Assembly (NCBI GenBank): GCA_947494155.1
Contig: CANLTW010000014.1
Coordinates: 1-35,170, forward strand
Length of the DNA: 35,170 nucleotides
Direction of reading: 5' to 3'
DNA from: Chlamydiota bacterium
Lineage (GTDB): Bacteria > Chlamydiota > Chlamydiia > Chlamydiales > RGXB01
In this document: positions 1 through 25,026 of the stretch, piece after piece
Layout of the letters: each line of letters begins with the position of its first letter
Position numbering within the stretch: the stretch's first letter is position 1
Position numbers and translations under genes: made by a program
The notes under the pieces: model-generated
The model's input: only the letters and a program-made list of their open reading frames with translations
Databases searched by the model: none
Told to the model about the DNA's origin: nothing

Positions 1-89
1 CATTTATGGCTAAGCTAGAAGAGTTTTTGAACTTAAGAGAGCCTGCCCAGGACGAAGCTGACCAGGAAGGAGCTGCCCAGGAAGAGTAG
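1..89 (+). CDS. 3' end of an upstream gene (partial; ...FMAKLEEFLNLREPAQDEADQEGAAQEE*), product unknown
   Basis: Open frame from position 3 to TAG at 87-89, followed closely by a strong terminator hairpin. Confidence 0.6.
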   Translation, partial: FMAKLEEFLNLREPAQDEADQEGAAQEE

Positions 90-113
90 CAAATCGCCTA
101 TCGTTCTAAACAG

Positions 114-140
114 AAAAGGGCCCCCCAAGGGGCCCTTTTT
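114..140 (+). terminator. Intrinsic terminator (A-tract/T-tract flanked, possibly bidirectional)
   Basis: AAAAGGGCCCC-CCAA-GGGGCCCTTTTT perfect stem-loop downstream of the stop at 89. Confidence 0.85.
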
Positions 141-190
141 GAAGCAAGCTTAGATGCAAAAAGTTATAATGTAGGTTAGTAAATACCTCT
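138..190 (+). pseudogene. Orphan extreme C-terminal remnant of an ANK-HECT paralog (FEASLDAKSYNVG*)
   Basis: 141-190 matches 2912-2961 at 42/50 nt; the translation resembles the tail of 337..2688 (VALDSEDYNTG*). Confidence 0.65.
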
Positions 191-268
191 TTCAAGCTAG
201 ATGACTATTATCGTAGTCGTGCGGTGGTGAGGGTGGCTTTTCGTTTCCTTTCAGAGAAAATATCGTTC

Positions 269-302
269 AAATTTTATAAAGATTTAATTTTTTATAAAAT
301 TT
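269..302. promoter_or_regulatory. 12-bp perfect inverted repeat (AAATTTTATAAA-N10-TTTATAAAATTT) upstream of the ANK-HECT gene; possible operator
   Basis: Seen directly, but pure A/T so it could be chance. Confidence 0.3.
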
Positions 303-336
303 TTGTATAGTAGTTCTAAAATTTAGGTATAGTTTT

Positions 337-2688
337 ATGTCTAGCGGGGTAAGACCTAACGACAGTAGAGTTGAAGGATTTGGATGTATAGAACCCGATT
401 CCACATCTAAGGAAATTGGGATCTGGCAAAATTTTCGACAAGCTGTTTCTCAGTCATTAGTAGCAATAACAGCTTTTTTAAGACCTAGCACTTTATTAAA
501 TGGAAGCAAGACACCAACTCAAGCTTACGATCCTCAAACTACTAAACAAGAGAGAATTTCACAGATCCAAACCCTCTTAGAGGGGATCATTGAAGGAGCA
601 GGAGCTCTAGCAGAACATAAAGCCCGTGGGAAGAATCTCCTTCGTGCTGCTTCCTTGGGGCATCTTGATGAGTTAGAGAGTCTTTTGACTGGATATTCTC
701 AAATCAGCGGGGAATATCTTGGCCAGGCAGTGCGTGAAGCGGCTGAAAAAGGGCACCTGCAGGTTTTGAACAGACTTCTTTCAGGTCAAGTCAAAATTGA
801 CCAAGAGTTTGTAGGATGTGCATATACTTTAGCAGCTAGGAACGGTCATACAGGTGTGATCAGTAGGCTTCTTGAAAGCTATCCTCGAATTCCCGGATAT
901 TCACGGGATATGGCGGTACTTGAGGCAGCGGTAAAGGGTCATTCGAATGTAGTAAGGTTGCTCCTTAAGGATAATGTAAAAATTGATCGAGATACACATG
1001 ATACGGCGGTACGTAAAGCAGCCGGGAAGGGGCATGTCGGTGTAATTGAGGTTCTTTTTGAAATTGATTCAGAAATTAGCACGAAAATTCGAGGATTGGC
1101 GGTACGTGAAGCAGCTGAAATAGGACATTTAGGTGTTATCAATTTGCTTTTAGAGGGCAGTGCTCAAATTAGCGAAGAACATCGTGGTTACGCTGTAGTA
1201 GAAGCGGCTAGAAATGGGCATCTGGATGCGCTCAACAGGCTTCTTGACGGTGATGCACGGATTCCTAGGTATGTGCGTGATCAGGCCTTAAGTGCAGCAG
1301 CTGGAAATGGGAACTTGAACATAATCAACAGACTTCTTGAGGACAGCGCTCAAATAAGTCATCAGTATCGTGGAAATGCTTTAATTCAAGCAGCTTTGAA
1401 TGGTCATTTTTCTGTTATGAGGTGTCTCATGAGAGATAGCAACGATCATATAATAACATTTGAGGAAAATATTATTGAGAGCGCACTCAATATAAGGCAT
1501 TTATCCCGCGGTATCCAACTAGCTACACTTTTTAGTACAATTTACCAAAATGTTCGCTCGATAACACCGAGATTCCAGAACATTCTTTTTGATCGTATCA
1601 GTACCTTAGAGCAGCAACAACAACAAACCCTAAGAGATATGATCACCATGATCCCAGTCCAAGAAGAACCTACAGCTAGTTTGCAAGACTTCATAGCTCT
1701 TCCTGGAACGTTATATGTGCCAAGCTGGAAAGATTTGGAAAGCAATCCTCTTGGATATTTAAGAGCTATGGTTGAAATGGACTTCCAACGGGTTTGTTTT
1801 TCTGATGGAAAAGCTATTGATTTAGGTGGATTAACAAAAGAATTTGTAAACAGATTGATTTTAGGCCTCAATAAGAAAAAATTCATTGTAACACACGAAA
1901 TACTAAGTCAGGTCCTTCTCCCAATTGCAGAAACTGAGGAGCAAAAAGAAGCGTTAACCTTATTTGGTCGTTTACTTACTGATCTACACACAAGAAATAG
2001 CGTAAGAAAGGACAAAATCATGATACCTAGAATTTTGGATCCGAATTTTTTTGACGCTATATGCAAGAAAGAAAACGAAAAGCTAAATTTAATAGATTGT
2101 CATACTTGGCTCAGAAATGTATGGAAAAATCCCCAGAGCAGTAACTCGATTCAATCTGTTTCAAGCCTCTTAGAGGGTAAAAATAAAAGCGAGCAAGAGA
2201 TTTTGACTTTGATTTTAGATTGGAAAAGTTCGGTAATTTTGGCGTTTGAGTGTATAGATCGGGGTATCGGTCCAACTTTAAGAGAAGCTATGAGAGATCA
2301 GAAAGGTTGCTTAGCTCTAGGAAGAGAATTTTTTGGACAAGAGATAAATGCTAAACTGGTGCTTGAAAAGTTAGAAATTTTGCCTCCTGCAGAGCAACAT
2401 TTACGACAAAATTTTGATCTGATGATACACTGGTTTAAAGAATGGATTAATCAAGCACACCCGAACGATTTAGAAAGGTTTGTATTTTGCGTTACAGCAA
2501 ATAGATCTTTAGGGGAGGGTAATATAGTTCTAAAACCAAACTTTTCTAACGGAAATCGTGGTACCGCTTTGGAAATACATACCTGTTTTAATTCTTTGGA
2601 TTTCCCGTATTTACCTGGTATCACTAAGGAATTATTTTTGGATGCTCTAAACGTCGCTCTAGATTCTGAGGATTATAATACGGGCTAA
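337..2688 (+). CDS. Ankyrin-repeat protein with C-terminal eukaryote-type HECT E3 ubiquitin ligase domain (putative secreted effector)
   Basis: About 9 ankyrin-like repeats (AAxxGHxxVxxLL). HECT N-lobe motif FSDGKAIDLGGLTKEFV, LFGRLL. C-lobe LERFVFCVTA and catalytic motif EIHTCFNSLDFP (Cys750, codon 2584-2586). Aromatic residue at -4 (YNTG*). Confidence 0.85.
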   Translation: MSSGVRPNDSRVEGFGCIEPDSTSKEIGIWQNFRQAVSQSLVAITAFLRPSTLLNGSKTPTQAYDPQTTKQERISQIQTLLEGIIEGAGALAEHKARGKNLLRAASLGHLDELESLLTGYSQISGEYLGQAVREAAEKGHLQVLNRLLSGQVKIDQEFVGCAYTLAARNGHTGVISRLLESYPRIPGYSRDMAVLEAAVKGHSNVVRLLLKDNVKIDRDTHDTAVRKAAGKGHVGVIEVLFEIDSEISTKIRGLAVREAAEIGHLGVINLLLEGSAQISEEHRGYAVVEAARNGHLDALNRLLDGDARIPRYVRDQALSAAAGNGNLNIINRLLEDSAQISHQYRGNALIQAALNGHFSVMRCLMRDSNDHIITFEENIIESALNIRHLSRGIQLATLFSTIYQNVRSITPRFQNILFDRISTLEQQQQQTLRDMITMIPVQEEPTASLQDFIALPGTLYVPSWKDLESNPLGYLRAMVEMDFQRVCFSDGKAIDLGGLTKEFVNRLILGLNKKKFIVTHEILSQVLLPIAETEEQKEALTLFGRLLTDLHTRNSVRKDKIMIPRILDPNFFDAICKKENEKLNLIDCHTWLRNVWKNPQSSNSIQSVSSLLEGKNKSEQEILTLILDWKSSVILAFECIDRGIGPTLREAMRDQKGCLALGREFFGQEINAKLVLEKLEILPPAEQHLRQNFDLMIHWFKEWINQAHPNDLERFVFCVTANRSLGEGNIVLKPNFSNGNRGTALEIHTCFNSLDFPYLPGITKELFLDALNVALDSEDYNTG

Positions 2689-2699
2689 CAAATACCAAT

Positions 2700-2950
2700 A
2701 AAAAATAGATAAATAAAGCTAATCCAGAGCAACTAGAAGAATTTTTACATCGTAAAACCGGACTAAAAATTTGGGTATGGGGAAAATGAATATTCGGCAA
2801 AATACCCGTTCTTGGTAGGCGAGTGCGGCCATAGAAATACATACCTGCTCAAATTCGATAGATCTGCCGCGGGTAGATAATATGGACCAAGAAAGGTTTA
2901 ATCAAGCCTTGGAAGCAAGATTAGAACAAAAAAGTTATAATGTCGGCTAG
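2700..2950 (+). pseudogene. Degenerate HECT C-lobe remnant
   Basis: Translates K*INKANPEQLEEFLHRKTGLK / frameshift near 2770 / LGMGKMNIRQNTRSW*ASAAIEIHTCSNSIDLPRVDNMDQERFNQALEARLEQKSYNVG*, colinear with the last ~82 aa of 337..2688; two in-frame stops and one frameshift. Confidence 0.85.
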
Positions 2951-3079
2951 TAAACATCTCTTTTTTGGGTGGATATCTATTTAACTTATTGATTCTCAGT
3001 ATAGTAAAAACAGCACAAAAATCCCTTTACAAAGTTTATGAAATAATTTATTTATTATTTATTTTGTAGAGGGAATCAC

Positions 3080-4771
3080 ATGTCGATTGGGCCAGGGGGG
3101 CACGTTGGACCTTCAGCTTTTGGGGAAAGGGAAAAAACAACTCATTCTGGAATGAATCCAAGCGAAAAAAAAATTCAATGGGTCGTGTTGGCGGCCTTTG
3201 GGGATCTTAAAGCTATTAATATTCACCTTGAAAAAGGGACTCCAATTACCAATCAAGAAAGGTCTTTGGCCATTAAAGCCGCCGCTAGGAATGGTCTTGA
3301 ACAGGTAATTGACAGGTTTTTGGCGGGTTTTGAAATGCCTGAAAAGGAAAGGATAGAAGCCATAAAAATAGCAGCGGGGCAAGGGAAAGAGGGTGCTATC
3401 GACAGGCTACTAAGGGCGTTTGAAATGCCTGAAAAGGAAAGGATAGAAGCCATAAAAATAGCAGCGGAGCACGGGCAAGAGGGTGCTGTGAATAGGCTAC
3501 TAGAGGGATTTAAAATGCCTACGTGGGGCTGTGTCTCGGCGGTAAAATTGGCTGCAGAAAATGGGAACATTAGAGTGATAGAGAGATTGCTTCAGGAAAC
3601 AACAATAAACCCAGACGATCTCTCTAACCCTATAAATTATGCTTTTCTCCACGCAACACAAAAAGGGCACAATGCTGTTGTGGGGTGGCTTCTTGAGAAG
3701 TGCCCAAATATCAACCCTTCTATTCGGGGCAGGCTAGTAACTGTAGCAGCTGAAAAAGGGCTGAGCTTGCTAATTGAAAGGCTTTTGCAAAATGGGGGAT
3801 TGACCAGCCGGGCTGCACGTGGTGGGGGAGTGATCAGCCGGGGTGTACGTGGTGAAGCTTTGAGACAAGCAGCGATACACGGGCATCTTCAGGTAATTCA
3901 AAGGCTTCTACAGGATGAGGATCAGATTTTACCCGTTTATCGCGGTCAAGCAATAGTAGCAGCGGCAGCAAATGGTCATTGCGAAGTTGTACCATGTCTT
4001 ATGCGAAATTCTAATGGCGATATCATAGATATTGAAGAAGAGCATCTTTTCAAAGCTTTAGATGCTCACAAAAATGCAAAACCGGAACAGATCTCTTACA
4101 ACATAGGGAGGCTTGGAACGGTATTTTTAGAGAATTCCAGAGCTCTTTCGGAAGATTTTATTTTGTATCTATATCAACTCATGGACGAAGAAGACGGGGT
4201 ACTAAGAATACCTATCATAACACATCTTGTCAGATACCCTCTAGATTACTTGAGGAGCTACTGCAAAAGAGGTTTTCCTGAAGTAAGGGTTGTGGACCCA
4301 AATGCAAACTTACCGAATAACTCGCACCAGATGCTTTTTAATATACTTTTTTTAAGCCTAGAAGCTCATAAACTCCTAACTGCAGGTGAGGATCCACGGT
4401 TTAATGGCCAAAAATTACCTGTTGCAAAAACTGATGAACAAAAAGAGGCATTATCTCTTTTTGGTCAACTTTTAACCTATTTGCACAAGATCTACAAAGA
4501 GAGTGGCGTTGCTATTGAAATTCCTAGCGGAATTTTCCGTAGAGATCTTTTATCTATAATAGGTAAGAGTTCTGAAAATATGCTTGAATTAACAGATTGT
4601 AGCGAAGAGATTAAGCAAATATGGAAAAGCCCACAAACTGAAGAGGAACAATCTTGGAAACAATCGGTTATCGCGGCTATTCAATGTATAGATCGAGGCA
4701 TCGGTCCGGAACTAAGACAAGCTTTAGATGGGGATAGTGCATTTTTAGGTGAAAGGTTTTTTGAAGATTAG
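3080..4771 (+). CDS. Ankyrin-repeat protein, paralog of 337..2688, with a degenerate HECT N-lobe and no catalytic C-lobe
   Basis: Ankyrin repeats; shared blocks LPVAKTDEQKEALSLFGQLL and WKQSVIAAIQCIDRGIGPELRQA. It stops at LGERFFED, where the paralog continues LGREFFGQE... into the C-lobe. RBS GAGGGA. Confidence 0.85.
   Translation: MSIGPGGHVGPSAFGEREKTTHSGMNPSEKKIQWVVLAAFGDLKAINIHLEKGTPITNQERSLAIKAAARNGLEQVIDRFLAGFEMPEKERIEAIKIAAGQGKEGAIDRLLRAFEMPEKERIEAIKIAAEHGQEGAVNRLLEGFKMPTWGCVSAVKLAAENGNIRVIERLLQETTINPDDLSNPINYAFLHATQKGHNAVVGWLLEKCPNINPSIRGRLVTVAAEKGLSLLIERLLQNGGLTSRAARGGGVISRGVRGEALRQAAIHGHLQVIQRLLQDEDQILPVYRGQAIVAAAANGHCEVVPCLMRNSNGDIIDIEEEHLFKALDAHKNAKPEQISYNIGRLGTVFLENSRALSEDFILYLYQLMDEEDGVLRIPIITHLVRYPLDYLRSYCKRGFPEVRVVDPNANLPNNSHQMLFNILFLSLEAHKLLTAGEDPRFNGQKLPVAKTDEQKEALSLFGQLLTYLHKIYKESGVAIEIPSGIFRRDLLSIIGKSSENMLELTDCSEEIKQIWKSPQTEEEQSWKQSVIAAIQCIDRGIGPELRQALDGDSAFLGERFFED
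3329..3467 (+). repeat. 90-bp-period tandem duplication inside the ankyrin array
   Basis: 3329-3377 is identical to 3419-3467 (49 bp; FEMPEKERIEAIKIAA twice). Confidence 0.9.
3794..3853 (+). repeat. 30-bp tandem duplication (GGLTSRAARG / GGVISRGVRG)
   Basis: Two adjacent near-identical 30-mers. Confidence 0.75.
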
Positions 4772-4798
4772 CACGCAAAGAATAAAGGAACTATTTAT

Positions 4799-4911
4799 AT
4801 GCAAAATAACACTGGTTATAACATGCAAAAGAAACCAAAAAAAATGATGCAAAGAAAACTGTTGGCAACAAGAAAGTTTTGGGAGGTTTTTTTGGGACAT
4901 TGGATTATTGA
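4799..4911 (+). pseudogene. Lys-rich double-glycine-leader peptide, frameshifted at an A8 run (restored: MQNNTGYNMQKKPKKNDAKKTVGNKKVLGG-FFGTLDY*)
   Basis: RBS AAGGA before ATG 4799. Adding one A to the run at 4837-4844 gives a KKVLGG motif like neighbouring small ORFs. As read, the frame continues to 4954 (51 aa). Confidence 0.45.
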
Positions 4912-4956
4912 CATTTTTATAAATAAATATATATACAGAGGAGAAGGAGTATAAGT

Positions 4957-5067
4957 ATGAAAAAACTTCCAAAGGGAAAGAAATTGTCCAAAAAGAAAAA
5001 AGTTGTAAAAGGTGGGAAATCACCTGGTAAGATGGGGAAGCCGGGCCAATGTATCTTTACTTACTAA
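4957..5067 (+). CDS. 36-aa Lys-rich peptide with double-glycine (bacteriocin-type) leader: MKKLPKGKKLSKKKKVVKGG-KSPGKMGKPGQCIFTY
   Basis: Strong RBS (GAGGAGAAGGAG) and TTGACA at 4908-4913; KKLSK....VKGG resembles the GG-leader consensus; below the ORF-track cutoff. Confidence 0.65.
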   Translation: MKKLPKGKKLSKKKKVVKGGKSPGKMGKPGQCIFTY

Positions 5068-5541
5068 TTAGCCGGAAAAGTTCCAGTATTGATCAATTGG
5101 AATACCGGTTATGCGAGCACAGATGAATTGATACGAATGCTCTCTATAAAATCGCTATTCACATCGCGAGGAATTTCTTGATCATGAACCTCATTTTGAG
5201 TCGGGCGGTATCGAACCTTTGCTATTTATTATAGAGGATTTTTATGCAGACTTTTGGCCCCCAAATCCACAAGCTCTATTTTGAGCCATTTTGGGTTAGA
5301 CGGTTTGTCCGAGGATGTGAACGCTCTTGTGCTGTGTAAATGTAGTAGCGAACACCTACCAAAATTTATTCCGCTTTTTGGTTTCAACTAATCTGAATAT
5401 TTTGCATAAGGCCCATTATCAGACGTTGAAAGGGCGAGAAAAAGGGGGTAAATTAGAAAAAAAAGGTGTTGCCATACCCCCCAACTACAATCAATCGATT
5501 ATAGAGCAAAAGAAAGAGTTTTTCATTTAAAAAGCGCTTTT

Positions 5542-6708
5542 TTAGTCTTTTAGAAGCTCTTGAGCGACAAGATCTAGCTTATCTTTGTTCCTCTCAAGGA
5601 TTTTTTGTGCAAATAGATCTATTTTATTCATATTTTTGGTGGAAAAATCTAAAGGATCGATGTTAAGCCATTTATTGTCCTCTTTTACTCCAATAGTTAC
5701 CAGGGTATCGAAGGCATAGACATTATTTTTCGTGAGAATCTCGATATAATCTCCAATTAGCTCACTTCTCCCCTCAGTTATCATAGTGCCTAATTCATCA
5801 ATTCCAGCAATCTTTCCTACGTAATAGGGAAAATTGGGATTCTCTTTGGTCATTTTTGGGATTAAGGAGATGTGCGTAACGAGCAACTTTTTACCGGGAT
5901 ACTGAGCTGAAGTTGTCAAAATTATGGATAATAGTGGGTTATCTATGATAACAGCTGCATCTGCTACAAGTTGGGGTTCGCCTCCCGATTTTAAAACTAA
6001 TTTATTTGCAGGAGAAATTCCATACGGTGATGTTGTTCCCCCAATAAACTGATAACCTACCGGGTTAACGCTACGAAAGTTAGATCTCCTATTGTTTGCT
6101 AAAATGACTTCATTCGAGTTGAGATTGTACCCATAAATTATGATATGATTCAGACATTCGCTCAGAAGGAAGTCCCCTGTTAACTGTCTAAGCTGCTCGA
6201 TAAAATCCTGATTTTCTATCATTGGCAAAAACAGCCCAAAACCCGATAGAATTTTATGTGAATAACTGGATTGAAGTGTTTCTGAGGTTATCTTTTTAAA
6301 TATGGGAATGAGTTTTTCAGCACTATATTTAGGGCCCTTCTCACCAGGAATAGACAGAGCAAAAGCTAAAAGCGATCCAACAGAGGTTCCCCCAATTACG
6401 TCGTAAAGATCAGAGATCGACTTTTTAGTTTTCTGTTCTAGATACTCCATAACACGCAGAGCATAAAGACCTTTAGCCCCTCCCCCATCAATAACCAAAA
6501 GGTGGATACTGTCTTTTTCAGTTTTACGAACAGCAGGAAGCTCTTGATCCTTATTTTCAAAGATCTTTTGAGCAATCATCTTCTCTTTTTGAAAGAATGT
6601 CTCATAAGAGGATATGCGATTGTTTTTATAGATATAAAAAGTAACAGTACAACCCGTTAATAGAAGGAAAAAAACAAAAAAAAGGCGAACTAAAATTTTT
6701 ATTCTCAT
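5542..6708 (-). CDS. Patatin-like phospholipase with N-terminal membrane anchor (copy 1)
   Basis: DGGGAKG, GTSVG and ADAA motifs. Start moved from GTG 6825 to ATG 6708 (MRIKILVRL...), giving 388 aa like its paralogs. Confidence 0.9.
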   Translation of the reverse strand: MRIKILVRLFFVFFLLLTGCTVTFYIYKNNRISSYETFFQKEKMIAQKIFENKDQELPAVRKTEKDSIHLLVIDGGGAKGLYALRVMEYLEQKTKKSISDLYDVIGGTSVGSLLAFALSIPGEKGPKYSAEKLIPIFKKITSETLQSSYSHKILSGFGLFLPMIENQDFIEQLRQLTGDFLLSECLNHIIIYGYNLNSNEVILANNRRSNFRSVNPVGYQFIGGTTSPYGISPANKLVLKSGGEPQLVADAAVIIDNPLLSIILTTSAQYPGKKLLVTHISLIPKMTKENPNFPYYVGKIAGIDELGTMITEGRSELIGDYIEILTKNNVYAFDTLVTIGVKEDNKWLNIDPLDFSTKNMNKIDLFAQKILERNKDKLDLVAQELLKD

Positions 6709-6844
6709 AGAATCCGGATAAGCCAAAAGCAACAAAACTATCAAGTTAAATTGGATGAAACCAGTGATCGATCTTAGTTTGTAAAAACCTAATATTGAAA
6801 AAAAGTAAATATTTATCTTATTCACAGTTTAAAAGGTGAAGGAT

Positions 6845-7072
6845 ATGAAAAAGCAACCAAAACAAAAAAAAGATCAATTCTTAGAGGCTAGTACAAAATC
6901 TAAACGCAATAAAATTAGGGGGGGGTTCTCAGAACCCGATTCTCTAGATATAGTTGAAATTGGAATAGCTCATTTTGACGAGGGAAAATCTAGAGCTGCA
7001 GTAAAAGAAGAGTTTTCATGGGCAGATCCGGCTGACATAGATCAAATCTTAGATAGAGGACCACCGAAATAA
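6845..7072 (+). CDS. 75-aa peptide with Lys-rich double-glycine leader (MKKQPKQKKDQFLEASTKSKRNKIRGG-) and acidic core
   Basis: RBS AAGGTGAAGGA before ATG 6845; the RGG codons contain a G8 run (6918-6925); basic leader and acidic core. Confidence 0.65.
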   Translation: MKKQPKQKKDQFLEASTKSKRNKIRGGFSEPDSLDIVEIGIAHFDEGKSRAAVKEEFSWADPADIDQILDRGPPK

Positions 7073-7537
7073 TCCTCGTGGCTAGTACTAAATCCTAAGG
7101 CAAAAACACGAAAAACTTCCAGTGGTAAAAGGAAAGATAATAGGGAGGTATAGGAATTTCTTCTTCGCTTAGTTAGTGTTCCATTCTGTTCATCAGAGGC
7201 TTAACCCATCCACCTTAGATAGTTGATTGTTTATGTTGAAAATTATAAATAATTATTGTATTTGGAATTAAAGGTGAGGAATATGAAAAACCAGAAAAAA
7301 AATGAAATAAATCCTCAAAAGTTACTACTAAAACCCCTTTTAAAAACTCAAAGAGTTCTAGGGGAAAATTTGATCCATATGATTGCTGTTGGACTGCAGC
7401 TGACAAAGAAATGATCTTGACAAGGAAATGATAAAGAAATTTACTAGGCGTTGACGAAAGGTTTACCGGATTTGGCATTTCTTTTTGATTAGGTATGACA
7501 ATATTGGTTCGATACGGGCTAGTACTAAATCTAAACG
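6887..7537 (+). repeat. Three dispersed copies of a ~20-bp motif GCTAGTAC(A/T)AAATC(T/C)(A/T)AA(C/G)G at 6887, 7081 and 7518
   Basis: 6887-6906 vs 7518-7537 match 19/20; the 7081 copy shares its first 14 nt with 7518; encodes ASTKS of the leader. Confidence 0.75.
7283..7431 (+). pseudogene. Lys-rich double-glycine-leader peptide, frameshifted at a G4 run (restored: MKNQKKNEINPQKLLLKPLLKTQRVLGG-KFDPYDCCWTAADKEMILTRK*)
   Basis: Upstream AAAGGTGAGGAATATGAAAAA closely mirrors AAAGGTGAAGGATATGAAAAA of 6845. Adding one G at 7361-7364 restores GG and a tail resembling WADPADIDQILDR. As read: 43 aa ending at 7414. Confidence 0.5.
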
Positions 7538-7613
7538 GTAAAAAAAAGGGGGGATGCCTGGTAGTATCCCCTCACGGCAAAAAAACAGTATAATGTTCAT
7601 CGTTCAAAATTAG
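7518..7613 (+). pseudogene. Remnant of a GG-leader peptide gene (ASTKSKR*KKGG-MPGSIPSRQKNSIMFIVQN*)
   Basis: Nucleotide similarity to 6887-6925 with an in-frame TAA. Confidence 0.4.
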
Positions 7614-7678
7614 CCATTTGGTATTCATGCTCTGATTGCCCAGATTGTTATGAATAATAATTGTGTCAAAAACAGTGA

Positions 7679-8848
7679 TCAATCTTTGAGCAGTTCTTCA
7701 GCTATTGTATCTAAAGTTTCCTTGTTTTGATGTAAAAATAACTTCGCATATTCAAGAACGTTATCAAAATTTTGGTCTGAAAAATCAAAAGGATAGACGT
7801 TCATCCAATCCATATTTTGGTTTATACCAATCTCTGTTAATTGATCAAATCTATAAACATCCTTTAGAGATTGCATAAATTCGCGAATTAACTGATTTTC
7901 TGCAGTATGGATCAGAGGGGGGGTTATGCCTCCGGCTTCAATAGAACCAGAGTAAAACGGAAAATCTACTCTATCCGGTGTTTGTTTTGGATGCATTACA
8001 ATATAAGTAATTAAAAATTTTTTTCCTGGATACATTTTCTGAAGGTCAATAATACTTGATACCACAGGATTAATGACGACAATCCCTGCATCTCCAATAA
8101 ATTCAGGGTTTTTTAATGGATTTAAGAGAATTTTATTTGGAGGAATTATACCAAAAAAAGCAGTCGTTCCACCTAAAAGCTGATAAAGGAGCGGATTAGC
8201 CAATTTTAGATCAGCTCCTCTGTTGTGAAAAGCTGTAAGCGTAGTTGTACTGAAATTATATCCATAAAGCACAAGGTGATTAAGCGCTTTACTGAATGGG
8301 ATGTTTCCGCATGTCGATTTTAGCAACTGAATGAATTTTTGGTTATTAACTATAGCAGACAAAAGGCCGTATCCGGATAAAAACTTTTGTTTAAAACTGG
8401 GTTCCAATGATTTTACAGCTATAGGTAATAGAGTTACTAAATCCTCTGCCGTAAATTTTGGTTTAATCTCCCCAGGAATAGACAGAAGACTCGTAATCAC
8501 GGAACCAATTGAAGTCCCTCCCAGAACATCATAAAGTTCAGATATAGGTTTGCCAGTTTTTTTTTCCAAATATTCCAAAAGTACAACAGGGTATACCCCT
8601 TTTATCCCACCCCCCTCAATAATAAGAACCTTAATCCTTTCTTGTTTGAGATTTACCTCTGGGTTTGGTTCATTCATCAAAGGTTTTAAAACATCAAGCG
8701 CTATTTTCTCTTCATCTTTATAAAAGTTTTCGTATGAAGCTATCTCTTTAATCTTATAGATATGATTTGCGAGAAAATAAGATCCAATCATTAGTCCGAT
8801 AAATAAAAGAATAAACACCTTTATTTTTAAAAACTGGTAAATACCCAT
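7679..8848 (-). CDS. Patatin-like phospholipase with N-terminal membrane anchor (copy 2)
   Basis: EGGGIKG, GTSIG and GDAG motifs; hydrophobic N-terminal segment. Confidence 0.9.
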   Translation of the reverse strand: MGIYQFLKIKVFILLFIGLMIGSYFLANHIYKIKEIASYENFYKDEEKIALDVLKPLMNEPNPEVNLKQERIKVLIIEGGGIKGVYPVVLLEYLEKKTGKPISELYDVLGGTSIGSVITSLLSIPGEIKPKFTAEDLVTLLPIAVKSLEPSFKQKFLSGYGLLSAIVNNQKFIQLLKSTCGNIPFSKALNHLVLYGYNFSTTTLTAFHNRGADLKLANPLLYQLLGGTTAFFGIIPPNKILLNPLKNPEFIGDAGIVVINPVVSSIIDLQKMYPGKKFLITYIVMHPKQTPDRVDFPFYSGSIEAGGITPPLIHTAENQLIREFMQSLKDVYRFDQLTEIGINQNMDWMNVYPFDFSDQNFDNVLEYAKLFLHQNKETLDTIAEELLKD

Positions 8849-9027
8849 TTCGCCTTCATTTGGTTAGGTTACTTTTTTCAGAGCAATCCTTTTTATTGAA
8901 TCTAACCTACAAGTTTTAACACACCAGAAAGGTAATACCCGGGTAGAGACATAAAAATGAGCTCTGATATACATCCAATAAATTATGTAAAGAAAAATAG
9001 CAAAGAAAACTTTAAAAAGAAACGTGA

Positions 9028-10200
9028 TCAATCTTTGAGCAGTTCATCCACAATAGAATCCAAAGCGTCTTTATTTTCATGTAAGATGAGCTTGGAGAAA
9101 TCATCAATTTTTGTTATGTTTTTTTCTGAATAATCAAAACTGTGGATATTGCTCCACTCGATATTTTGTTCTAAACCGATTTCTAACAGCAAATCAAACT
9201 TATAGACACTAGCTAAGGACTTCATGTATTCCCTTACCAGCTGATTTTGAGCCGTTTTTATAAGCGGTATAAACAACCCTTCAGCTTTTATCCAACCAGA
9301 GTAGAAGGGGAAATTTATTGTATCCGGCATTTCTTTTGGTGCAATAACAATGTAATTTATCAAAAACTTTTTATTTGGATACATTTTCACTAGCTCAATC
9401 ATCAAAGGTCCAAGGGGATTATTGAGTACGAGCGCAGCGTCACCGATAAATTGAGGAGAATAGAGAGGGCTTAAAAGAATTTTATTTGGTGGAGATACTC
9501 CAAAAAAAGAGGTTGCCCCACCAACAAGTTGATAAAGTAGCGGATCGGCGGCTTCTAGTTTATTTCCCCTGCTATGAAATGCATCGATTGTTGTAGTGCT
9601 AAAGTTGTATCCAAATAGCACCAAATGATTGAGTGTTTTGCTTAACGGGGTATCCCCATAATACGATTGGAGTGACTTGATAAACTTTTGATTGTTTATT
9701 TTTGGAGAGAAAAGGCCGTAACCACTTAAAAAATTTTGCTTCCAATCGGGTTGTAGGGTTTTTTGAGCAAGATTTGGAAAAATAGTAACAAGATCTTCTG
9801 CGGAGTATTTTGGTTTACCTTTTTCTCCAAGAGATAAAAGACTTACTATCATAGAACCAATCGAAGTTCCCCCCATCACATCGTAGAGCTCGGAAATTGG
9901 TTTGCCTGTTTTCTTTTCTAGGTAATCAAGAACTCTGAGCGCGTAAAGACCTTTTGCCCCTCCCCCCTCGATAACTAAAACTTTTATCCTCTCCTGGTTC
10001 AGGTTTACCTCTGGATTAGGTTCACTCCAAAGGGGTTTCAAAATATCAAGCGCTATTTTTTCTTCGTTTTTGTAAAAGGTTTCAAAAGAGGATATTTCTT
10101 TGTTTTGATAGATTCGGTGCAATAAAACATAAGAACCAATAACAAGCCCTATAAAGAGAAGAACTAAAATTTTTACTTTAAAAAACTGATAAATGGTCAT
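9028..10200 (-). CDS. Patatin-like phospholipase with N-terminal membrane anchor (copy 3)
   Basis: EGGGAKG, GTSIG and GDAA motifs. Confidence 0.9.
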   Translation of the reverse strand: MTIYQFFKVKILVLLFIGLVIGSYVLLHRIYQNKEISSFETFYKNEEKIALDILKPLWSEPNPEVNLNQERIKVLVIEGGGAKGLYALRVLDYLEKKTGKPISELYDVMGGTSIGSMIVSLLSLGEKGKPKYSAEDLVTIFPNLAQKTLQPDWKQNFLSGYGLFSPKINNQKFIKSLQSYYGDTPLSKTLNHLVLFGYNFSTTTIDAFHSRGNKLEAADPLLYQLVGGATSFFGVSPPNKILLSPLYSPQFIGDAALVLNNPLGPLMIELVKMYPNKKFLINYIVIAPKEMPDTINFPFYSGWIKAEGLFIPLIKTAQNQLVREYMKSLASVYKFDLLLEIGLEQNIEWSNIHSFDYSEKNITKIDDFSKLILHENKDALDSIVDELLKD

Positions 10201-10316
10201 AATTTTTTCGCCCTAATAGGTATAAGTTCGCAGATCATAGGTTATTAAATAGCTCATATTTACTGGTAAAACAGATAAAATTTAAACTGTCAAATCAAAA
10301 TTTTCAAACTTCAAAA

Positions 10317-11489
10317 TCACTGTTTAAGCAGCTCAATAGCTAGTGAGTCCAAAGCTTCTTTATTTTCACGTAAAATAAGCTTAGAGAAATCGTCAATTTT
10401 CTCTATGTTTTTTTCTGAAAAATCAAAAGAATTGATCTCCCGCCACTCCATATTTTGTTTTAAACCGATTTCAAATAATAAATCAAACTTGTAGACACTG
10501 GATAAACTTTGCATGGACTTTCGAATCAGCTGATTTTGTGCTACTCCTGTAAGGGATCCATACATTCTCTCAGCTTTAAGTTTGCCTAAATTGAAGGGAA
10601 AATTGACAGTATCTGGATATTGTTTAGTTTCCATAACAATATAGGTAACCAAAAACTTTTTATCCGGATACATTTTTAAAAGATCAATCATTACTGTTTC
10701 AACAGGATTATTGAGAACCAAAGCAGCATCTCCAATAAACTGGGGCGAATAGAGAGGACTTAGCAAAACTTTATTCGGAGGAAAAAGGCCAAAAAAAGAG
10801 ATCGTCCCTCCAATAAGCTGATAGAGAAGCGGATCGGCTGTTTCTAAACTATTTCCTCGGCTGTGGAATGCCTGAATTTTTGATGTGCTAAAGTTTAAAC
10901 CATAAAGAACTAAATGATTGAGTGTTTTGCTCGTAGGGATATCCCCATAGATGGATCGGAGTAAGTCGATATATTCTTGGGTGTTAATCAATGGTGAAAA
11001 AAGGCCAAAACCAGATAAGAGTACTTGTTTCCAAGAAGGATATAAAGCTTTCTGAGCGAGTTTTGGAAAAATTTTAATAAAATATTCTGCTGAGTATTTT
11101 GGTTTGCCTTTTTCCTCAGTAGATAGAGCGCTTACTATAAAAGAACCAATCGAAGTTCCCCCCATGACATCATAAAGCTCAGATATTGGTTTACCTGTTT
11201 TTTTTTCTAAATAATCAAGAATTCTTACAGCGTATAAACCTTTTGCTGCTCCCCCTTCAATAACTAAAACATTTATCCTTTCCTTATTGAGATTTACCTC
11301 CGGATTGGGTTCATGCCAAATGGGTTTTAAAACATCGAGCGCTATTTTCTCTTCATTTTTGTAAAAGTTTTCGTAAGAGGCTATTTCTTTACTCTTAAAA
11401 ATCTGATGGGCTAGTGTAAAGCAACCGGCCAATGCACCTATTAAAACTAGTAAAAAAATATAGACTTTGAAAGTTTTGCGAATTTCCAT
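10317..11489 (-). CDS. Patatin-like phospholipase with N-terminal membrane anchor (copy 4)
   Basis: EGGAAKG (one oxyanion-loop Gly replaced), GTSIG and GDAA motifs; ATG 11489 preferred over TTG 11513 by paralog length. Confidence 0.9.
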   Translation of the reverse strand: MEIRKTFKVYIFLLVLIGALAGCFTLAHQIFKSKEIASYENFYKNEEKIALDVLKPIWHEPNPEVNLNKERINVLVIEGGAAKGLYAVRILDYLEKKTGKPISELYDVMGGTSIGSFIVSALSTEEKGKPKYSAEYFIKIFPKLAQKALYPSWKQVLLSGFGLFSPLINTQEYIDLLRSIYGDIPTSKTLNHLVLYGLNFSTSKIQAFHSRGNSLETADPLLYQLIGGTISFFGLFPPNKVLLSPLYSPQFIGDAALVLNNPVETVMIDLLKMYPDKKFLVTYIVMETKQYPDTVNFPFNLGKLKAERMYGSLTGVAQNQLIRKSMQSLSSVYKFDLLFEIGLKQNMEWREINSFDFSEKNIEKIDDFSKLILRENKEALDSLAIELLKQ

Positions 11490-11544
11490 CAAAAAATTTA
11501 CCTTTTTTTGCAAAACATGCTAACTAATCGCTTAAAGGTGATCA

Positions 11545-12711
11545 TTAGTCTTTCAAAAGCTCCGACGCTACAGCATCCAAAGCCTCTTTGTTCACATTAA
11601 GGATATGTCTTGCAAATTTGTCAATTTTTTTAAGATTTCTCTCTGAGAAATCAAGAGAGTCGATATTGCTCCATTCGTTATTTTGGTTGATTCCTACTTC
11701 AAGAAGGTTGTCAAACTTATAGATAGTTGTTTTTGATAAAATATCTATCCAATGACGAATCAACTGATTTCTTGCCTCACCTATGAACGTTCGAAGGTAT
11801 TTAAGAGCTATGGCACTCCCTTCAAAATAATTGAAATCGGTAGTGTATTCCAGCTCTTTAGGACTTAGGGTGATATGGGTAATTAAAAGCTTTTTATTTG
11901 GATAGATTTTTGAGACCTCCAAAATAATCGCAAAAAGGGGGCTATTAAGTACAAGCGCGGCATCGCCAACAAATTGTGGATTATGCTCATAATTAAAAAT
12001 CAATCTATTTGGCGGAGCGAAACCCCAAGGGGAGGTGGTCCCTCCAATAAGCTGATAAAGGAGCGGATCTGCGTAATTTAGAGGCGATCCCCTGTTATCA
12101 AAAGCGATTAATTGATTAGAATTGTAGTTAAAGCCGTAAAGGATTAAATGATTCAAAGTTTCGCTTAGACGGATATGACCGTAGACCTCTTCGAGCTTTT
12201 GGATATATTTCTGGTTATTCAATATGGGGGATAAAATACCAAAACCGGTCAAAATTTTTCGACCTAAGCTTGGATCTAATGTGGTGTGTGCTACTTTAGA
12301 AAAAACATCCAGGATTTCCCTTGCTGTGAACTTAGGTTTTCCATCTTGGGGAGTGGATAAAAGGCTAACCAGTAATGACCCGATCGAGGTTCCCCCCATG
12401 ACATCATAAAGTTCTGAAATGGGTTTACCTGTCTTTTTTTCTAAATAATTAAGAATTCTTAGAGCATAAAGTCCTTTAGCCCCTCCCCCCTCTACAACCA
12501 AAACCTTAATTCTTTCCTGTTTCAAATTTGGCTCAATAGTGTTTGAAACAAAAGTGGAGCCGATGATTTCTCGTGCGGTTTTTTCCTCTTTTTGATAGAA
12601 AACCTCATAAGATTCTATTTCGCGCTTCTTAAAAAAAAAGTGCGCTATAGCGTAGGTTCCCAAAATAAACACTAATGTAAGAGAAGTTATTATTGTCTTG
12701 ATCCATTTCAT
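11545..12711 (-). CDS. Patatin-like phospholipase with N-terminal membrane anchor (copy 5)
   Basis: EGGGAKG, GTSIG and GDAA motifs. Confidence 0.9.
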   Translation of the reverse strand: MKWIKTIITSLTLVFILGTYAIAHFFFKKREIESYEVFYQKEEKTAREIIGSTFVSNTIEPNLKQERIKVLVVEGGGAKGLYALRILNYLEKKTGKPISELYDVMGGTSIGSLLVSLLSTPQDGKPKFTAREILDVFSKVAHTTLDPSLGRKILTGFGILSPILNNQKYIQKLEEVYGHIRLSETLNHLILYGFNYNSNQLIAFDNRGSPLNYADPLLYQLIGGTTSPWGFAPPNRLIFNYEHNPQFVGDAALVLNSPLFAIILEVSKIYPNKKLLITHITLSPKELEYTTDFNYFEGSAIALKYLRTFIGEARNQLIRHWIDILSKTTIYKFDNLLEVGINQNNEWSNIDSLDFSERNLKKIDKFARHILNVNKEALDAVASELLKD

Positions 12712-15175: not shown

Positions 15176-18100
15176 TTAGGCCGCCTTATCATACCCTTGA
15201 GCAAGTTGGAGTGCCCACTGGTACGATTCCCCTTTAAAGAAATGATCAATGGTGCTTTTTGAACGTAAAAAAACAATGTTATAACAGTGTCCGGAGCGAC
15301 TATTTTGGATTTCATGGACCGGAACTGTGATCCCTTTAATAGGCTGAGTAAAAGAGATCGTGGTTTTTTCCCGGCTGTGGTTCATCAGTATATGCATGTT
15401 GGCTCCCATACTAACCGCATCCTTGTCTGATACGAAGTTGATCACCTTTCCCCCAAAACATTTAGGGATGAGTTCTGCTGCACCAAAAGTGTGGACAATC
15501 AGTCGCTCTTTTTTTTCCTCCGGAAACTGTTCTAAGGCAAGGGCGGTATTCAGAGCCCCCTCGCTATGAGCCCAAATGCGCAGATTTCTAGCCGGATCTT
15601 CTAGTATGTTATGGGCTATTTTCTCTAGTAGATGCACCACATCCCCCTTAGCCCTTGAAATCTTGTTTTTTGCAGCTCGGTATACATCATGAAATAAAGA
15701 GATAGAGGTATTATAGACTAAAAAAACCTCTTTTTGGAGATGATTGGCCACCGTTTTAGCCGACTCTTTGGCTTCTAAAAGGGAATTTCCGACCCCATTC
15801 GTAAATAGATCGTAGGTTTGGCCATTGATTGGAGGGATGAAAAACCCATCGGGAAAGATTCTATGCACTAAAGGGTGCCACCCGTCTTGAAAAAGAGGCG
15901 CCGTGAGTTTTTTTTCATAGGGCGCTTTTTGGTTTTCTCGAAAAGCTTTTTGGGCTCTTTTATCAATGTTGGTCCGCCCTTTTTCTAAGAGTTGCCAAAA
16001 GGTTTTGGCGAGATAAGAGCCCGTGGCATATAGAGTTTTTGAAAATTCCTCAAGAGGGAATAAAACCTCCCCATTGGAATGACTTAAAAGACTATCCCAA
16101 GTAAGCTGTTTTCCCTCATAGAGATGATTTAAAAAGCTTTGGATTAACCCTGATAGATCTACATCGATTGAGTCGATAGGCGCCATGCCGGAGGGGTCTA
16201 TGAACTTTAAAGGGTTATTGTTGCAAAAGCGATGTCCATAGTGCCCAAATGTTTCCCCAAGGGGGTCTTTTGAAATAAATTGATGCATGTTTGGATCGTA
16301 ATAACGCATACCAAATACAAAAAGATCCGCTTCGGGGATATACCTTGCCTGTTTGTAAGACCAGGGGGATTGAATATTTTGAATTACTGCAGTTTTTTTT
16401 CCAAATGGGGAAAAACGGGAAAAGTGCTCCCATTTACCGCTTTTAGGATTAAAAAGTCCTACAAGGTTTTGAAAAATATCATGGCAAGACACGCAAAAGT
16501 TGTCGGTACTCTCTACCATGAGGGTATAGGCTCCTTTTTGTCCGTTTTGAGGGTAAAGTGTTCTAAACTCCAAAAGCTCTTTATTTTCTTTTCGGATAGC
16601 CCCCACCTCCTGTAGATTTTGGTAAAGGTAATCGATTGTCTCCTCTTTTCCCTTTGTAAGGATTTTTTTCTGGATCAGCCGATGCTTGAAATCATAGGAA
16701 AAAACGATTTTTTCCCCTTTAGAATCGATCTCAACTAAACGATCTAGGGCATCATAGTGAAACTCTTTAGAGCCCTGTTGGTCTTTTTGAAAAAAAAGAT
16801 TCCCTTGAGGATCGTAGTTAAAAAAGGAACCGTTACCATTTCTTATTTGGAATTTTGAGTCACTGTAGACTTTTGATTCCCCAAAAAACTCAGGCACTCC
16901 AGCCCCGTTATAAAGTATGTCGAGGGGTTCATCAGAAAATTTTTCAAGTTCATCGATACTATTGTAACTGTAGTACTGGGTATAGGTTTTAAACGGATCG
17001 ATACACCCCCTTTTTAAAGCAGACCCAAAACAGTTCTTTTTTTCGATCCTGTCGCTTCCACTGAAATCGACCTTTTTTTGGAGTCTACCATCAAGATCAT
17101 AAAAAAACTGCACAGCCCCAAGACCGAAAGGGAGTTCTATTTTTTTTAATGCATCCCCACCCTGTGTTTTATCAAAAAAAAACTCTATTTGCCCGTTTTT
17201 CGGTGTTTCTCGGGTAAGGGATTTAACCCCAAAAGAGCCTGAGGTAAAATAAAGGGAGCCAGCATCCAAAAAATGAAAAGCGCTAATTTCCAGGTTGGAG
17301 TCATACTCAATTCGTGTTAATTGCCCGGTTTCTAGCTCTTCAGCCACTACGAGGCCGATGGCATTATAAGTATAAAGAGTCGATTGCCCCGTGAGAAAAT
17401 TTCTTACTTCCGTAAGGTTTTCCATACCATCATAAAAGTACCTGTAGTCGACTGACCCATCAGAGGAAAAAACCCTCTCAATCTCGTCAAAATCGGTATA
17501 AGTAGTAAAAATAGTGGTGCCCGAGGGTTTTTTAAACGAGCTTACTCTCCCTCTTACATCGTAGGTATATTGGAAAATTTGGGGTTTGAGCGACTTGGCA
17601 TCGACCACCTTTTCTAAAAGTTTTGAGGTGCTGTCGTAGGTATATGTCAGCACCTGACTTTTTTCCCCCTCTAACGTTTGGTATATGAGCTCCTGTTCTA
17701 CAAGGTTCCCCTTAAGGTCTTTTTTGTAGTTCTCTTTTTTTATCAGTGTACCACTTGGATCATACAGACAAAAGGAGACAAGTTCATGGAAAGGGTCGAT
17801 GAAGTGGACCTCTTTGGTTTGGTTAGGAAGAATTTTGGTCCTTTTTTCTAATTTTATCCCATCAAGGGAGAGGCAATCCTCGTAAAGAAAAAGGGTCTTA
17901 TTCCCCAAAGGATCAATAAAAGCGGTCTGTCTCCCCCAAATATCAAACTCCTTTTTTGTACTTGACCACTTTCCATCTATCAAAAAGCTTACCTCGGCTA
18001 AGTCTCCTAAAGAATCATAAGAATGTTTTTTGTAGCTGAAAATGCGTTGCGCTTGATCCTCAATACGCTCCTCAAGCAAACGGTTTTTTTTATCAAAACT

Positions 18101-21578: not shown

Positions 21579-21693
21579 GATGTCACTATAAATAAAAGAT
21601 TTGTCGATTATGGATTGAAAAAGGGGGTTAATTTAAATAAAAGACCTGTTAAAATTCTAACTTATTTTACTTTTTTAATGGGAGTTTTTGAAA

Positions 21694-23361: not shown

Positions 23362-23381
23362 AACAAACTGTTAAAATTAGC

Positions 23382-23408
23382 GGTGTATTTAATAAATTTA
23401 TTGTCTCT
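23382..23408 (+). repeat. 27-bp direct repeat, right copy (GGTGTATTTAATAAATTTATTGTCTCT)
   Basis: 25/27 identical to 21552-21578. Confidence 0.75.
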
Positions 23409-23430
23409 AATTGAAACTTAAATTAAAAAT

Positions 23431-24402
23431 ATGTCCATTATGCATTTTTTAATTAGCTGTTGTATTGCAGGCCTTTTAGCTGCATCAGTCACCGATTCGA
23501 CCTCCACAGAGGTCCAGACGATTTTTTCACAAATTCAGGATTTTAAAAAAAAATTCCCTAAAGGTCACCAGGAGAGTGTACAAGAGTTGTACCAATCGGA
23601 TGAAAAAATCCGCCTTGTTAGCTACAACATTTTACATTCCCATTTTGACCGACAACACCCGCTTGAGCATAGATGGGATTTAAGAAAAAAGGGTGTAAAA
23701 GAGCTTATTGAGCACATGGATGGGGATATTTACCTGTTTCAGGAGTGCTCAAGAAAACAAAAAAATTGGATTTGGGAACATTTTTCTAAAGACTACCTAA
23801 TTGTAGCCGGGACAAATGCCTATTTTGAAAACCTCCCTGTATTATTGCGTAAGAGTCGATTCGAGTTGTTAGATACCTTTAACCTCTGTGCGGATAATTC
23901 CGAGAGAGTCCGCTATGTGTCGATTAGGGATAAAAAGACCTTGAAAGAGCTTCACCTGATGAACGTCCATACGGAGTTTCAAGATATTGAAAAAAGGCAG
24001 AGTACTTTTGACCGCATAGTATTGACCTATAAAAGGCTCAATTCTCCCAAAAATTTTGTAGTAGGGGGAGACATGAATGCATTTGACCCCTACGTTACCC
24101 ATAAAAATCTCCCATTTTGGGATGGGAATCTTTGTCATCAAAAACTTGTACAAAGCGGACTTTTTGACCTAAAAGAGGGGGTCCTTTTCGGACTATTTGG
24201 CCCTTTCGGAACGTATACAAACTCCGCACCAAATGACACTACCCCCTTTTTAGGCGAGGGTGTATTTGGGATATACTTGGACCGTTTTTATGGCGCTGAA
24301 AATATTCAACCCCTCTTTTTTGGAGTCGAAAAGGGGAAAGTCGACGGTGAATTCCCCTCTGACCACATGCCCATATTTACCGAATTTCTTTTGAAGGGAT
24401 GA
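23431..24402 (+). CDS. Exported endonuclease/exonuclease/phosphatase (EEP) family protein
   Basis: Signal peptide; SYNI, FQE, NVH, GGDMN, YLDRF and PSDHMP motifs. Confidence 0.88.
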   Translation: MSIMHFLISCCIAGLLAASVTDSTSTEVQTIFSQIQDFKKKFPKGHQESVQELYQSDEKIRLVSYNILHSHFDRQHPLEHRWDLRKKGVKELIEHMDGDIYLFQECSRKQKNWIWEHFSKDYLIVAGTNAYFENLPVLLRKSRFELLDTFNLCADNSERVRYVSIRDKKTLKELHLMNVHTEFQDIEKRQSTFDRIVLTYKRLNSPKNFVVGGDMNAFDPYVTHKNLPFWDGNLCHQKLVQSGLFDLKEGVLFGLFGPFGTYTNSAPNDTTPFLGEGVFGIYLDRFYGAENIQPLFFGVEKGKVDGEFPSDHMPIFTEFLLKG

Positions 24403-24410
24403 AAAATAAT

Positions 24411-24438
24411 AGGGCCGATCTGCTCCGGATCGGCCCTT
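24411..24438. terminator. Hairpin terminator between convergent genes
   Basis: AGGGCCGATC-N7-GATCGGCCCT perfect 10-bp stem. Confidence 0.75.
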
Positions 24439-24466
24439 GCTCAGGACTTAGGCTTTAAGCTTTTTT

Positions 24467-25012: not shown

Positions 25013-25026
25013 AATCTTTCTTGTCC

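Follow-up and report, generated by a model that had tools for sequence, protein, structure and literature searches.

An ankyrin-repeat gene family of Chlamydiota with a very probable, highly diverged relative of the eukaryotic HECT domain

Introduction

Do bacteria possess genuine relatives of the eukaryotic HECT ubiquitin ligases, or only proteins that imitate their mechanism? The question is raised by a gene at positions 337..2688, on the plus strand, of a 35,170-nucleotide stretch of DNA from a Chlamydiota bacterium (GTDB lineage Chlamydiales; RGXB01). This stretch, hereafter the window, is an entire contig (CANLTW010000014.1) of a 1.41-Mb genome that comprises 24 contigs and is 97.6% complete (assembly GCA_947494155.1). 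A first-pass annotation, made from the letters of the DNA, had described the gene product as ankyrin repeats joined to a canonical eukaryote-type HECT domain. Passages in reviews name SopA/NleL, NEL and SidC as the bacterial mimics of HECT ligases and describe no true HECT-class counterparts, and for the HECT, RBR, RCR and RZ classes a 2026 review says of bacterial counterparts that they “have not yet been identified” (PMC13720258).

Here we provide evidence that the C-terminal domain of this protein is very probably a real, if very diverged, relative of the eukaryotic HECT domain in both of its lobes, a relation that rests on profile matches together with the predicted fold. The gene belongs to a large family that is both expanding and decaying, a point that was absent from the first-pass annotation. 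The main addition of the present analysis is this family, which is undescribed in the literature searched, together with its rapid gene turnover and a conserved variant that retains only the N-lobe.

Results

Domain layout and motifs

The 337..2688 gene is the single long frame at its position, starts with ATG and encodes 783 amino acids (aa) followed by a stop; its GC content (0.40-0.42) is the same as that of the remainder of the window. Ankyrin repeats are strong in a Pfam scan (Ank_2 at E=2.6e-26, with four further ankyrin models also matching), and nine repeats of 33 residues were counted by eye at about aa 95-367. The HECT-type motifs that the first-pass annotation had placed behind these repeats are indeed found there, with FSDGKAIDLGGLTKEF starting at aa 488 and HTCFNSLDFP at aa 748. 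Its identification of Cys750 and of an aromatic residue at position -4 also stands, as Cys750 is 34 residues away from the C-terminus and Tyr780 occupies -4. In eukaryotic HECTs the catalytic cysteine is usually found some 32-36 residues before the C-terminus, and most of them have Phe at -4.

A full-length AlphaFold2 (AF2) model, with a predicted local distance difference test (pLDDT) score of 84.7 and a predicted template-modelling (pTM) score of 0.53, consists of a disordered N-terminus, an ankyrin solenoid, a linker and the HECT part. The N-terminal ~65 residues have no family match in the Pfam scan, and on the basis of the model they are a candidate secretion-signal region; disorder of this kind is compatible with a secretion signal but unspecific. 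The layout of the gene is as follows, in nucleotide positions of the window.

337..2688, plus strand: full-length ANK-HECT gene (open reading frame; orthologue P0002 of equal length; full-length AF2 model with pLDDT 84.7)
337..531, plus strand: N-terminal ~65 residues, largely disordered in the model (pLDDT <50 at aa 1-27 and 52-65; one helix at aa 25-48)
619..1437, plus strand: nine ankyrin repeats, presumed substrate-binding solenoid (Ank_2; DARPin and ankyrin chains matched to E 3e-29; helix pairs at aa 110-364)
1438..1698, plus strand: helical linker or middle region, aa 368-454 (model helices at 377-437, pLDDT about 81-90; few structural alignments extend there)
1699..2334, plus strand: HECT-type N-lobe, about aa 455-666 (structural alignments begin at residues 55-58 of a model of aa 400-783)
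1819-1848, plus strand: N-lobe motif D495-L-G-G498-x-x-K501-E-F (aligns with D-Y-G-G-V-S-R-E-F of Rsp5; D495 and G498 invariant)
2335..2685, plus strand: HECT-type C-lobe, about aa 667-783 (C-lobe superpositions; HTCFN aligned to HTCFN of Rsp5)
2584-2586, plus strand: catalytic-type Cys750 in H-T-C-F-N (family alignments)
2674-2676, plus strand: Tyr780 at -4 (family alignments)

Relationship to HECT ligases from sequence profiles

A word-indexed protein search with the single sequence retrieved nothing beyond the protein itself and a single orthologue; the same kind of search with the family alignment returned five proteins, with no eukaryotic HECTs among them. A pattern search for related loci with the single protein gave 83 pattern matches, 0 of which were confirmed. 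An exhaustive phmmer search over 1.84 billion cluster representatives identified 142 proteins at E<=1e-3, nearly all of them matched to the C-terminal end; 49 of the 142 reach E<=1e-10 and five reach E<=1e-30. The orthologue P0002, named “ankyrin repeat protein”, has 84% identity to the product and is of identical length.

For more sensitive comparisons we used a profile, termed A2, derived from an alignment of 27 short, domain-only relatives. Searched against PDB, this profile matched 67 distinct sequences at E<=1, and all 44 of those at E<=1e-3 are eukaryotic HECT ligases. The best match was Rsp5 (1.4e-8), followed by AREL1, HUWE1, Pub2, NEDD4, ITCH, E6AP, WWP1/2, SMURF1/2, TOM1 and NEDD4L. 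AREL1 was aligned across profile positions 90-376, and both the N-lobe motif D-x-G-G..(K/R)-E-F and the C-lobe motif H-T-C-F-N align with their Rsp5 counterparts. Weak matches of the profile to ExoU (E 0.04) were taken as chance.

The Pfam HECT model, PF00632, also detects members of the family, with matches at E<=1 in 22 of the 27 A2 sequences (best 6.5e-7). In a wider set of 70 relatives, 31 match it at E<=1e-3 (best 1.5e-10), and Ank_2 is present in 50. An NCBIfam scan produced only noise, far under the cut-offs, and no model for the family. Two members, P0126 and P0159, already carry a precomputed PF00632 match, so domain databases probably list a few family members without comment. The word “canonical” in the first-pass annotation did not survive these comparisons: the PF00632 match of the 337..2688 product stays under the model's cut-off, and its identity to solved HECTs is 11-20%.

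Predicted structure of the C-terminal domain

The AF2 model of aa 400-783, built with the A2 alignment, has a mean pLDDT of 86.3 and a pTM of 0.82. It places a bilobed fold at the C-terminal end of the protein, with a larger N-lobe, a C-lobe of ~110 residues and a hinge, all of them features of a predicted model. Foldseek comparison of this model with PDB gave 101 matches at E<=1e-3, and every listed row is a eukaryotic HECT, aligned over 345-466 columns. The template-modelling (TM) scores of these matches are low, at 0.3-0.56. The N- and C-lobes of HECTs are mobile relative to each other, and the low scores of the model fit this mobility.

Structure comparison had been proposed in the first-pass annotation as a check on its HECT assignment, and the outcome agrees with that assignment. 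VIA alignments over 253-303 residues (Z 15-19) gave Z of 19.0 for both UBR5 and HUWE1, 17.9 for HECTD3, 17.4 for Rsp5, 16.4 for TRIP12, 15.3 for UBE3C, 15.2 for HACE1 and 15.1 for E6AP; Z for Smurf1 was 17.1. Isolated C-lobes of E6AP, UBR5, HUWE1 and Smurf2 superpose on that of the model over 97-105 residues with a root-mean-square deviation of 2.5-3.1 Å (Z 11.2-11.9). In a pass over 48,161 representative chains that was independent of Foldseek, all 19 chains with Z>=8 were HECT ligases, and the next best chain had Z 5.9. Lastly, the closest clusters in the ESM Atlas are eukaryotic HECT families (score 0.92).

Conservation of catalytic-type residues

The motifs quoted above coincide with invariant or near-invariant columns of the family of 142 representatives and are thus not chance. 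D495, G498 and C750 are invariant in alignments of 43 and 70 sequences, C750 and G498 also in the alignment of 27. Conservation of H748, T749, N752, P757, F767 and Y780 is 84-100% (84-95% for H748, N752 and Y780). An aromatic residue occupies -4 in 131 of 143 family proteins (Tyr in 92, Phe in 39), and 118 of the 143 have H-[TASG]-C with the cysteine 31-43 residues from the end. Overall, the 337..2688 protein keeps 31 of the 34 positions that are conserved at >=80% in the 70-sequence alignment.

Distribution of the family

We surveyed 401 genomes sampled within one phylum, the Chlamydiota, with profile A2 at E<=1e-5. The family was detected in 85 of them, often with more than one match per genome, and the positive genomes include assemblies of one or two contigs. 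Restricted to good-quality genomes the count is 68 of 335, and by genus it is 59 of 212. At the same threshold no match was found in any of the 30 genomes of one family with small, Chlamydia-sized genomes; its largest genus accounts for 25 of these, and those shown have 1.0-1.2 Mb in 1-4 contigs.

In the 30 clusters that were looked up, there is no functional name other than “hypothetical protein” or “ankyrin repeat protein”, and many members are nameless, which makes the genes invisible to annotation-based surveys. Public taxonomic labels on family members are Simkaniaceae bacterium and Chlamydiales bacterium. One member, in the cluster of P0021, is labelled Flavobacteriia bacterium and comes from a 2.2-kb contig of a metagenome-assembled genome; this label reflects either mis-binning or a family that reaches beyond one phylum. 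DNA near-identical to the 337..2688 gene is present in 14 freshwater metagenome runs from five studies, filed 2017-2025, two of which may be the source.

A family-profile scan of the host genome in all six frames revealed six full-length HECT-like frames of 772-840 codons. The five other copies lie on three further contigs and have 14-20% identity to the 337..2688 product; all of them keep the T-C dipeptide, and ankyrin repeats are recognisable in one of the five, so that the others may have different N-terminal targeting domains. In sister genomes, some family copies contain stops or are split across frames. The copies elsewhere in this genome are as follows.

C15:21601-24120 and C15:24198-26591: pair of full-length HECT-like frames in tandem (family-profile scan)
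C15:15681-13360: full-length HECT-like frame (family-profile scan)
C10:48417-50828: full-length HECT-like frame (family-profile scan)
C4:71516-73831: full-length HECT-like frame (family-profile scan)

Comparison with known systems

With eukaryotic HECTs the protein shares the bilobed C-terminal fold, the D-x-G-G...(K/R)-E-F and H-T-C-F-N motifs, the position of the cysteine and the -4 aromatic residue. It differs from them in being bacterial, in its low identity and in its sub-threshold PF00632 match. Moreover, at -4 Tyr is commoner than Phe in the bacterial family, and the bacterial domain, known here from sequence and model, is compact, with about 330 residues aligned.

The first-pass annotation had also likened the order of domains to that of animal HACE1, and this likeness is confirmed: the four best full-length Foldseek matches are all HACE1 (828-862 columns, E 2.8e-9 to 5.6e-7), which has ankyrin repeats, a helical linker and a HECT domain in equal order. 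The full-length TM-scores to HACE1 are nevertheless only 0.16-0.29, such that the packing of the parts is either different or not predictable, and nine repeats are counted here by eye. Nor does the HECT part appear to have a particular affinity to HACE1, with Z of 15.2 or 9.2 compared to 18.8-19.0 for UBR5 and HUWE1, values that are affected by lobe orientation. Since by these scores it is no nearer to HACE1 than to UBR5 or HUWE1, an origin from HACE1 is not indicated; given that 50 of the 70 relatives have ankyrin repeats, the ANK-HECT fusion may have arisen within the bacterial family.

SopA and NleL are described in reviews as injected bacterial E3s with a repeat domain ahead of a two-lobed C-terminal domain that carries a catalytic cysteine, an arrangement similar to the one seen here. 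In those proteins the domain in front is a beta-helix, whereas here it consists of ankyrin repeats, and the C-terminal domain is detectably related to HECT by profile. A passage of the 2026 review holds that SopA and NleL imitate the way HECT ligases work “without being related” to them (PMC13720258). The first-pass annotation had remarked that SopA and NleL lack the HECT-type signature, and in line with this the Pfam scan of the protein at E<=1 lists 13 families, none of them SopA-type. SopA and NleL chains are also not among the rows shown for the A2 search of PDB (60 of 67) or in the Foldseek, VIA and 48,161-chain lists, which is an absence from lists only.

MavJ (Lpg2498) of Legionella pneumophila, compared by description only, differs in being a single Legionella protein with type IV delivery; by contrast, the bacterial family described here keeps the full HTCFN and -4 signature, with PF00632 matches down to E=1.5e-10. 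The ubiquitin-related effectors described for chlamydiae (F-box, BTB, RING/U-box, SneRING and ChlaDUB/ChlaOTU proteins) resemble the present family in that passages on them report eukaryote-like domains combined with repeats and lineage-specific expansions in environmental chlamydiae. They differ from it in being adaptors or RING-type ligases and deubiquitinases rather than HECT proteins. A 2014 survey of chlamydial ubiquitination families contains 0 occurrences of “HECT” (PMC4209131), a 2022 paper on Rhabdochlamydiaceae likewise has no occurrence of the word (PMC9723776), and in a 2025 paper on a Simkania RING ligase it appears as background only (PMC12591485). No such bacterial family was described in the literature searched.

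Host genome and transcription

The genome holds three full-length TLC nucleotide transporters. Two type III secretion components were searched for, which yielded one FHIPEP (SctV-type) gene with 726 bits and three secretins; type III secretion is stated for all chlamydiae in the abstract of PMC6925127. Chlam_PMP was not found in the genome search. Searches of the bacterium's own genome for UQ_con and ubiquitin found none, but control genomes were equally silent for UQ_con, so that absence is not shown by this result.

Ten contigs of 120-417 nt from four metatranscriptome runs, belonging to four studies, map to positions 1-5200 of the window, nine of them with 99-100% identity and one with 95-99%. 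Six lie in the 337..2688 gene, three in the gene at 3080-4771 and one at 1-52. These RNA-library contigs are a weak hint of expression, as contigs give no strand or level and DNA carry-over is possible; stretches without contigs carry no information. A promoter and terminator scan of positions 1-5600 was uninformative, with 12 promoter-like sites compared to 12.8 expected and 0 terminators compared to 4.5 expected.

Neighbouring genes and gene turnover

Three further features of the family lie beside the gene.

132..179, plus strand: possible last ~15 codons of a further HECT paralogue at the contig edge (weak, judged by eye)
2709..2947, plus strand: decayed C-lobe remnant of another paralogue, with a frameshift and stops (2738-2947 at E=5e-8, containing one TAG and one TAA)
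3080..4771, plus strand: paralogue of 563 aa with ankyrin repeats and the HECT-type N-lobe only (matches family profile positions 68-267 only)

In the remnant, the last 43 codons (2819-2947) are open and match family profile positions 347-385 at E=1.7e-14, with H-T-C and an end in Y-N-V-G kept. The frame-3 translation of 132..179 ends in ALFEASLDAKSYNVG and two stops, which resembles the C-terminal consensus of the family, and an in-frame stop lies 29 codons upstream. The two fragments suggest birth-and-death evolution at this locus.

The 3080..4771 gene has orthologues of equal extent in two sister species, with 85% identity over 563 codons and 53% over 548 codons. The Nei-Gojobori ratio of nonsynonymous to synonymous substitution rates (dN/dS) is 0.65 for the 85% orthologue and 0.30 for the 53% orthologue, which is from genome G001. 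From the equal extent and these ratios in sister species, the form that lacks a C-lobe seems to be kept by selection, and its product may be an E2-binding decoy or a regulator.

The remainder of the window contains other genes of note. Adjoining the HECT genes is a second expanded, effector-like family, which comprises five tandem paralogues of 388-427 aa at 5542-12711 on the minus strand, with patatin-like phospholipase domains (E 4e-11 to 8e-14). A protein of 1779 aa with RHS repeats (E=1.5e-27), unusual for so small a genome, is encoded at 15176-20515 on the minus strand. Positions 21688-25653 hold a run of eukaryote-flavoured domains: an AAA ATPase (557 aa), a member of the endonuclease/exonuclease/phosphatase family (323 aa) and a Yip1-domain membrane protein (208 aa).

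Discussion

We favour the interpretation that the 337..2688 gene encodes a divergent but genuine HECT E3 homologue, which this obligate intracellular bacterium, probably an environmental freshwater member of the Chlamydiota, exports to ubiquitinate host proteins, and we put its probability at roughly 0.6. By analogy with the HECT mechanism in the literature, the protein would be exported to the host cell, most likely by type III secretion and with the disordered N-terminus as a guide. There, the nine-repeat ankyrin solenoid would hold one or more host proteins while the N-lobe docks a ubiquitin-charged host E2. Ubiquitin would then move as a thioester onto Cys750 of the C-lobe, and the flexible C-lobe, aided by the -4 aromatic residue and the C-terminal tail, would hand it to a lysine of the bound substrate. 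Secretion, the use of host E1, E2 and ubiquitin, catalysis, and selection of substrates by the ankyrin repeats are thus all predicted steps.

Several observations weigh against this interpretation. PF00632 scores only 12.2 bits (E=0.14) on the whole protein and 14.5 bits (E=0.028) on aa 400-783, compared to a cut-off of 23.9; the match is confined to the C-lobe (profile positions 213-298 of 306), and all three PF00632 matches in this genome fall under the cut-off. A single-sequence phmmer search of PDB gave only ankyrin-repeat proteins in the best 60 of 288 rows. The protein departs from conserved family positions at G564P, Q666F and G721A; the first two changes are common to P0005, its closest relative in the alignment shown, and the third sits in the T-G motif of the C-lobe. 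The geometry between the domains is uncertain, as indicated by the full-length pTM and the TM-scores to HACE1. Furthermore, the protein has no recognisable secretion signal, its ligase activity, E2 partner and substrate are predictions, and the decay of paralogues beside the gene makes loss of function in this lineage conceivable.

Some of these points would also suit a HECT homologue that does not ligate ubiquitin, either because it only binds, sequestering host E2~Ub or an ankyrin-bound target, or because it transfers some other ubiquitin-like modifier. Purifying selection on the adjoining N-lobe-only paralogue (dN/dS 0.30 with the G001 orthologue) indicates that the family can be useful without a catalytic lobe, and binding without catalysis would be in line with both the three departures and the 11-20% identity to solved HECTs. 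We nonetheless consider this rather unlikely, as the retention of Cys750, His748, Asn752 and the -4 aromatic residue, both here and family-wide, is hard to explain without catalysis, and solved catalytic C-lobes can be overlaid on that of the model at 2.5-3.1 Å. The frameshifted C-lobe remnant and the possible second tail fragment at the locus, along with the interrupted or split copies in sister genomes, raise the different prospect of a pseudogene in the making, that is, an intact-looking member of a birth-and-death family whose expression or use has been lost. This appears quite unlikely given the 783 open codons with all invariant family residues, the orthologue of identical length at 84% identity, the near-identical recurrence of the sequence in freshwater runs filed 2017-2025 and, weakly, the RNA-library contigs from four studies inside the gene.

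The remaining alternatives concern whether the domain is related to HECT, or belongs to the bacterium, at all. A convergent mimic of the SopA/NleL type, unrelated to eukaryotic HECTs, would agree with the bacterial origin and with a C-terminal catalytic-cysteine domain behind repeats, as passages in reviews describe for SopA and NleL. It is very improbable, because no SopA-type Pfam family matches at E<=1, the motifs of both lobes align with Rsp5, and the family profile retrieves eukaryotic HECTs, to which the review passage cited above declares SopA and NleL unrelated (PMC13720258). HECT is otherwise a domain of eukaryotes and giant viruses, which could point to eukaryotic or giant-virus DNA mis-binned into a bacterial genome. 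We rejected such contamination, and hold it to be exceedingly improbable, because the same 35-kb contig carries GatA, GatB, an XerC/D-type recombinase and other bacterial genes at even GC content, relatives are present in 85 of the 401 genomes surveyed across the phylum, some of these 85 being assembled into just one or two contigs, and five further copies lie on other contigs of the same genome; the frame is, moreover, uninterrupted.

Under the favoured interpretation of a genuine HECT E3 homologue, acquisition of the family from a eukaryote is plausible, and if it was acquired in this way the event would date far back, given the presence of the family in 59 of the 212 genera of the phylum. 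A more far-reaching scenario, which we offer as speculation and judge decidedly improbable as a whole, is that the family constitutes the first bona fide bacterial branch of HECT, one older than the radiation of dozens of genera of chlamydiae. In that case HECT would have passed between chlamydiae and early eukaryotes in either direction, including a chlamydial contribution to eukaryotes, and the role of paralogues lacking the C-lobe would be to trap E2s and so to oppose or tune the ligases.

HECT homology in both lobes, in about one fifth of the sampled genomes of an obligate intracellular phylum and often with several copies in each, contradicts the picture in reviews of bacteria without HECT proteins. 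The family offers compact natural HECT domains for mechanistic study, as well as a putative ankyrin-based targeting system toward host substrates, and its N-lobe-only variant may show how E2 binding alone is exploited. Together, these genes allow the idea that chlamydiae and eukaryotes exchanged genes in the distant past to be examined on a concrete example.

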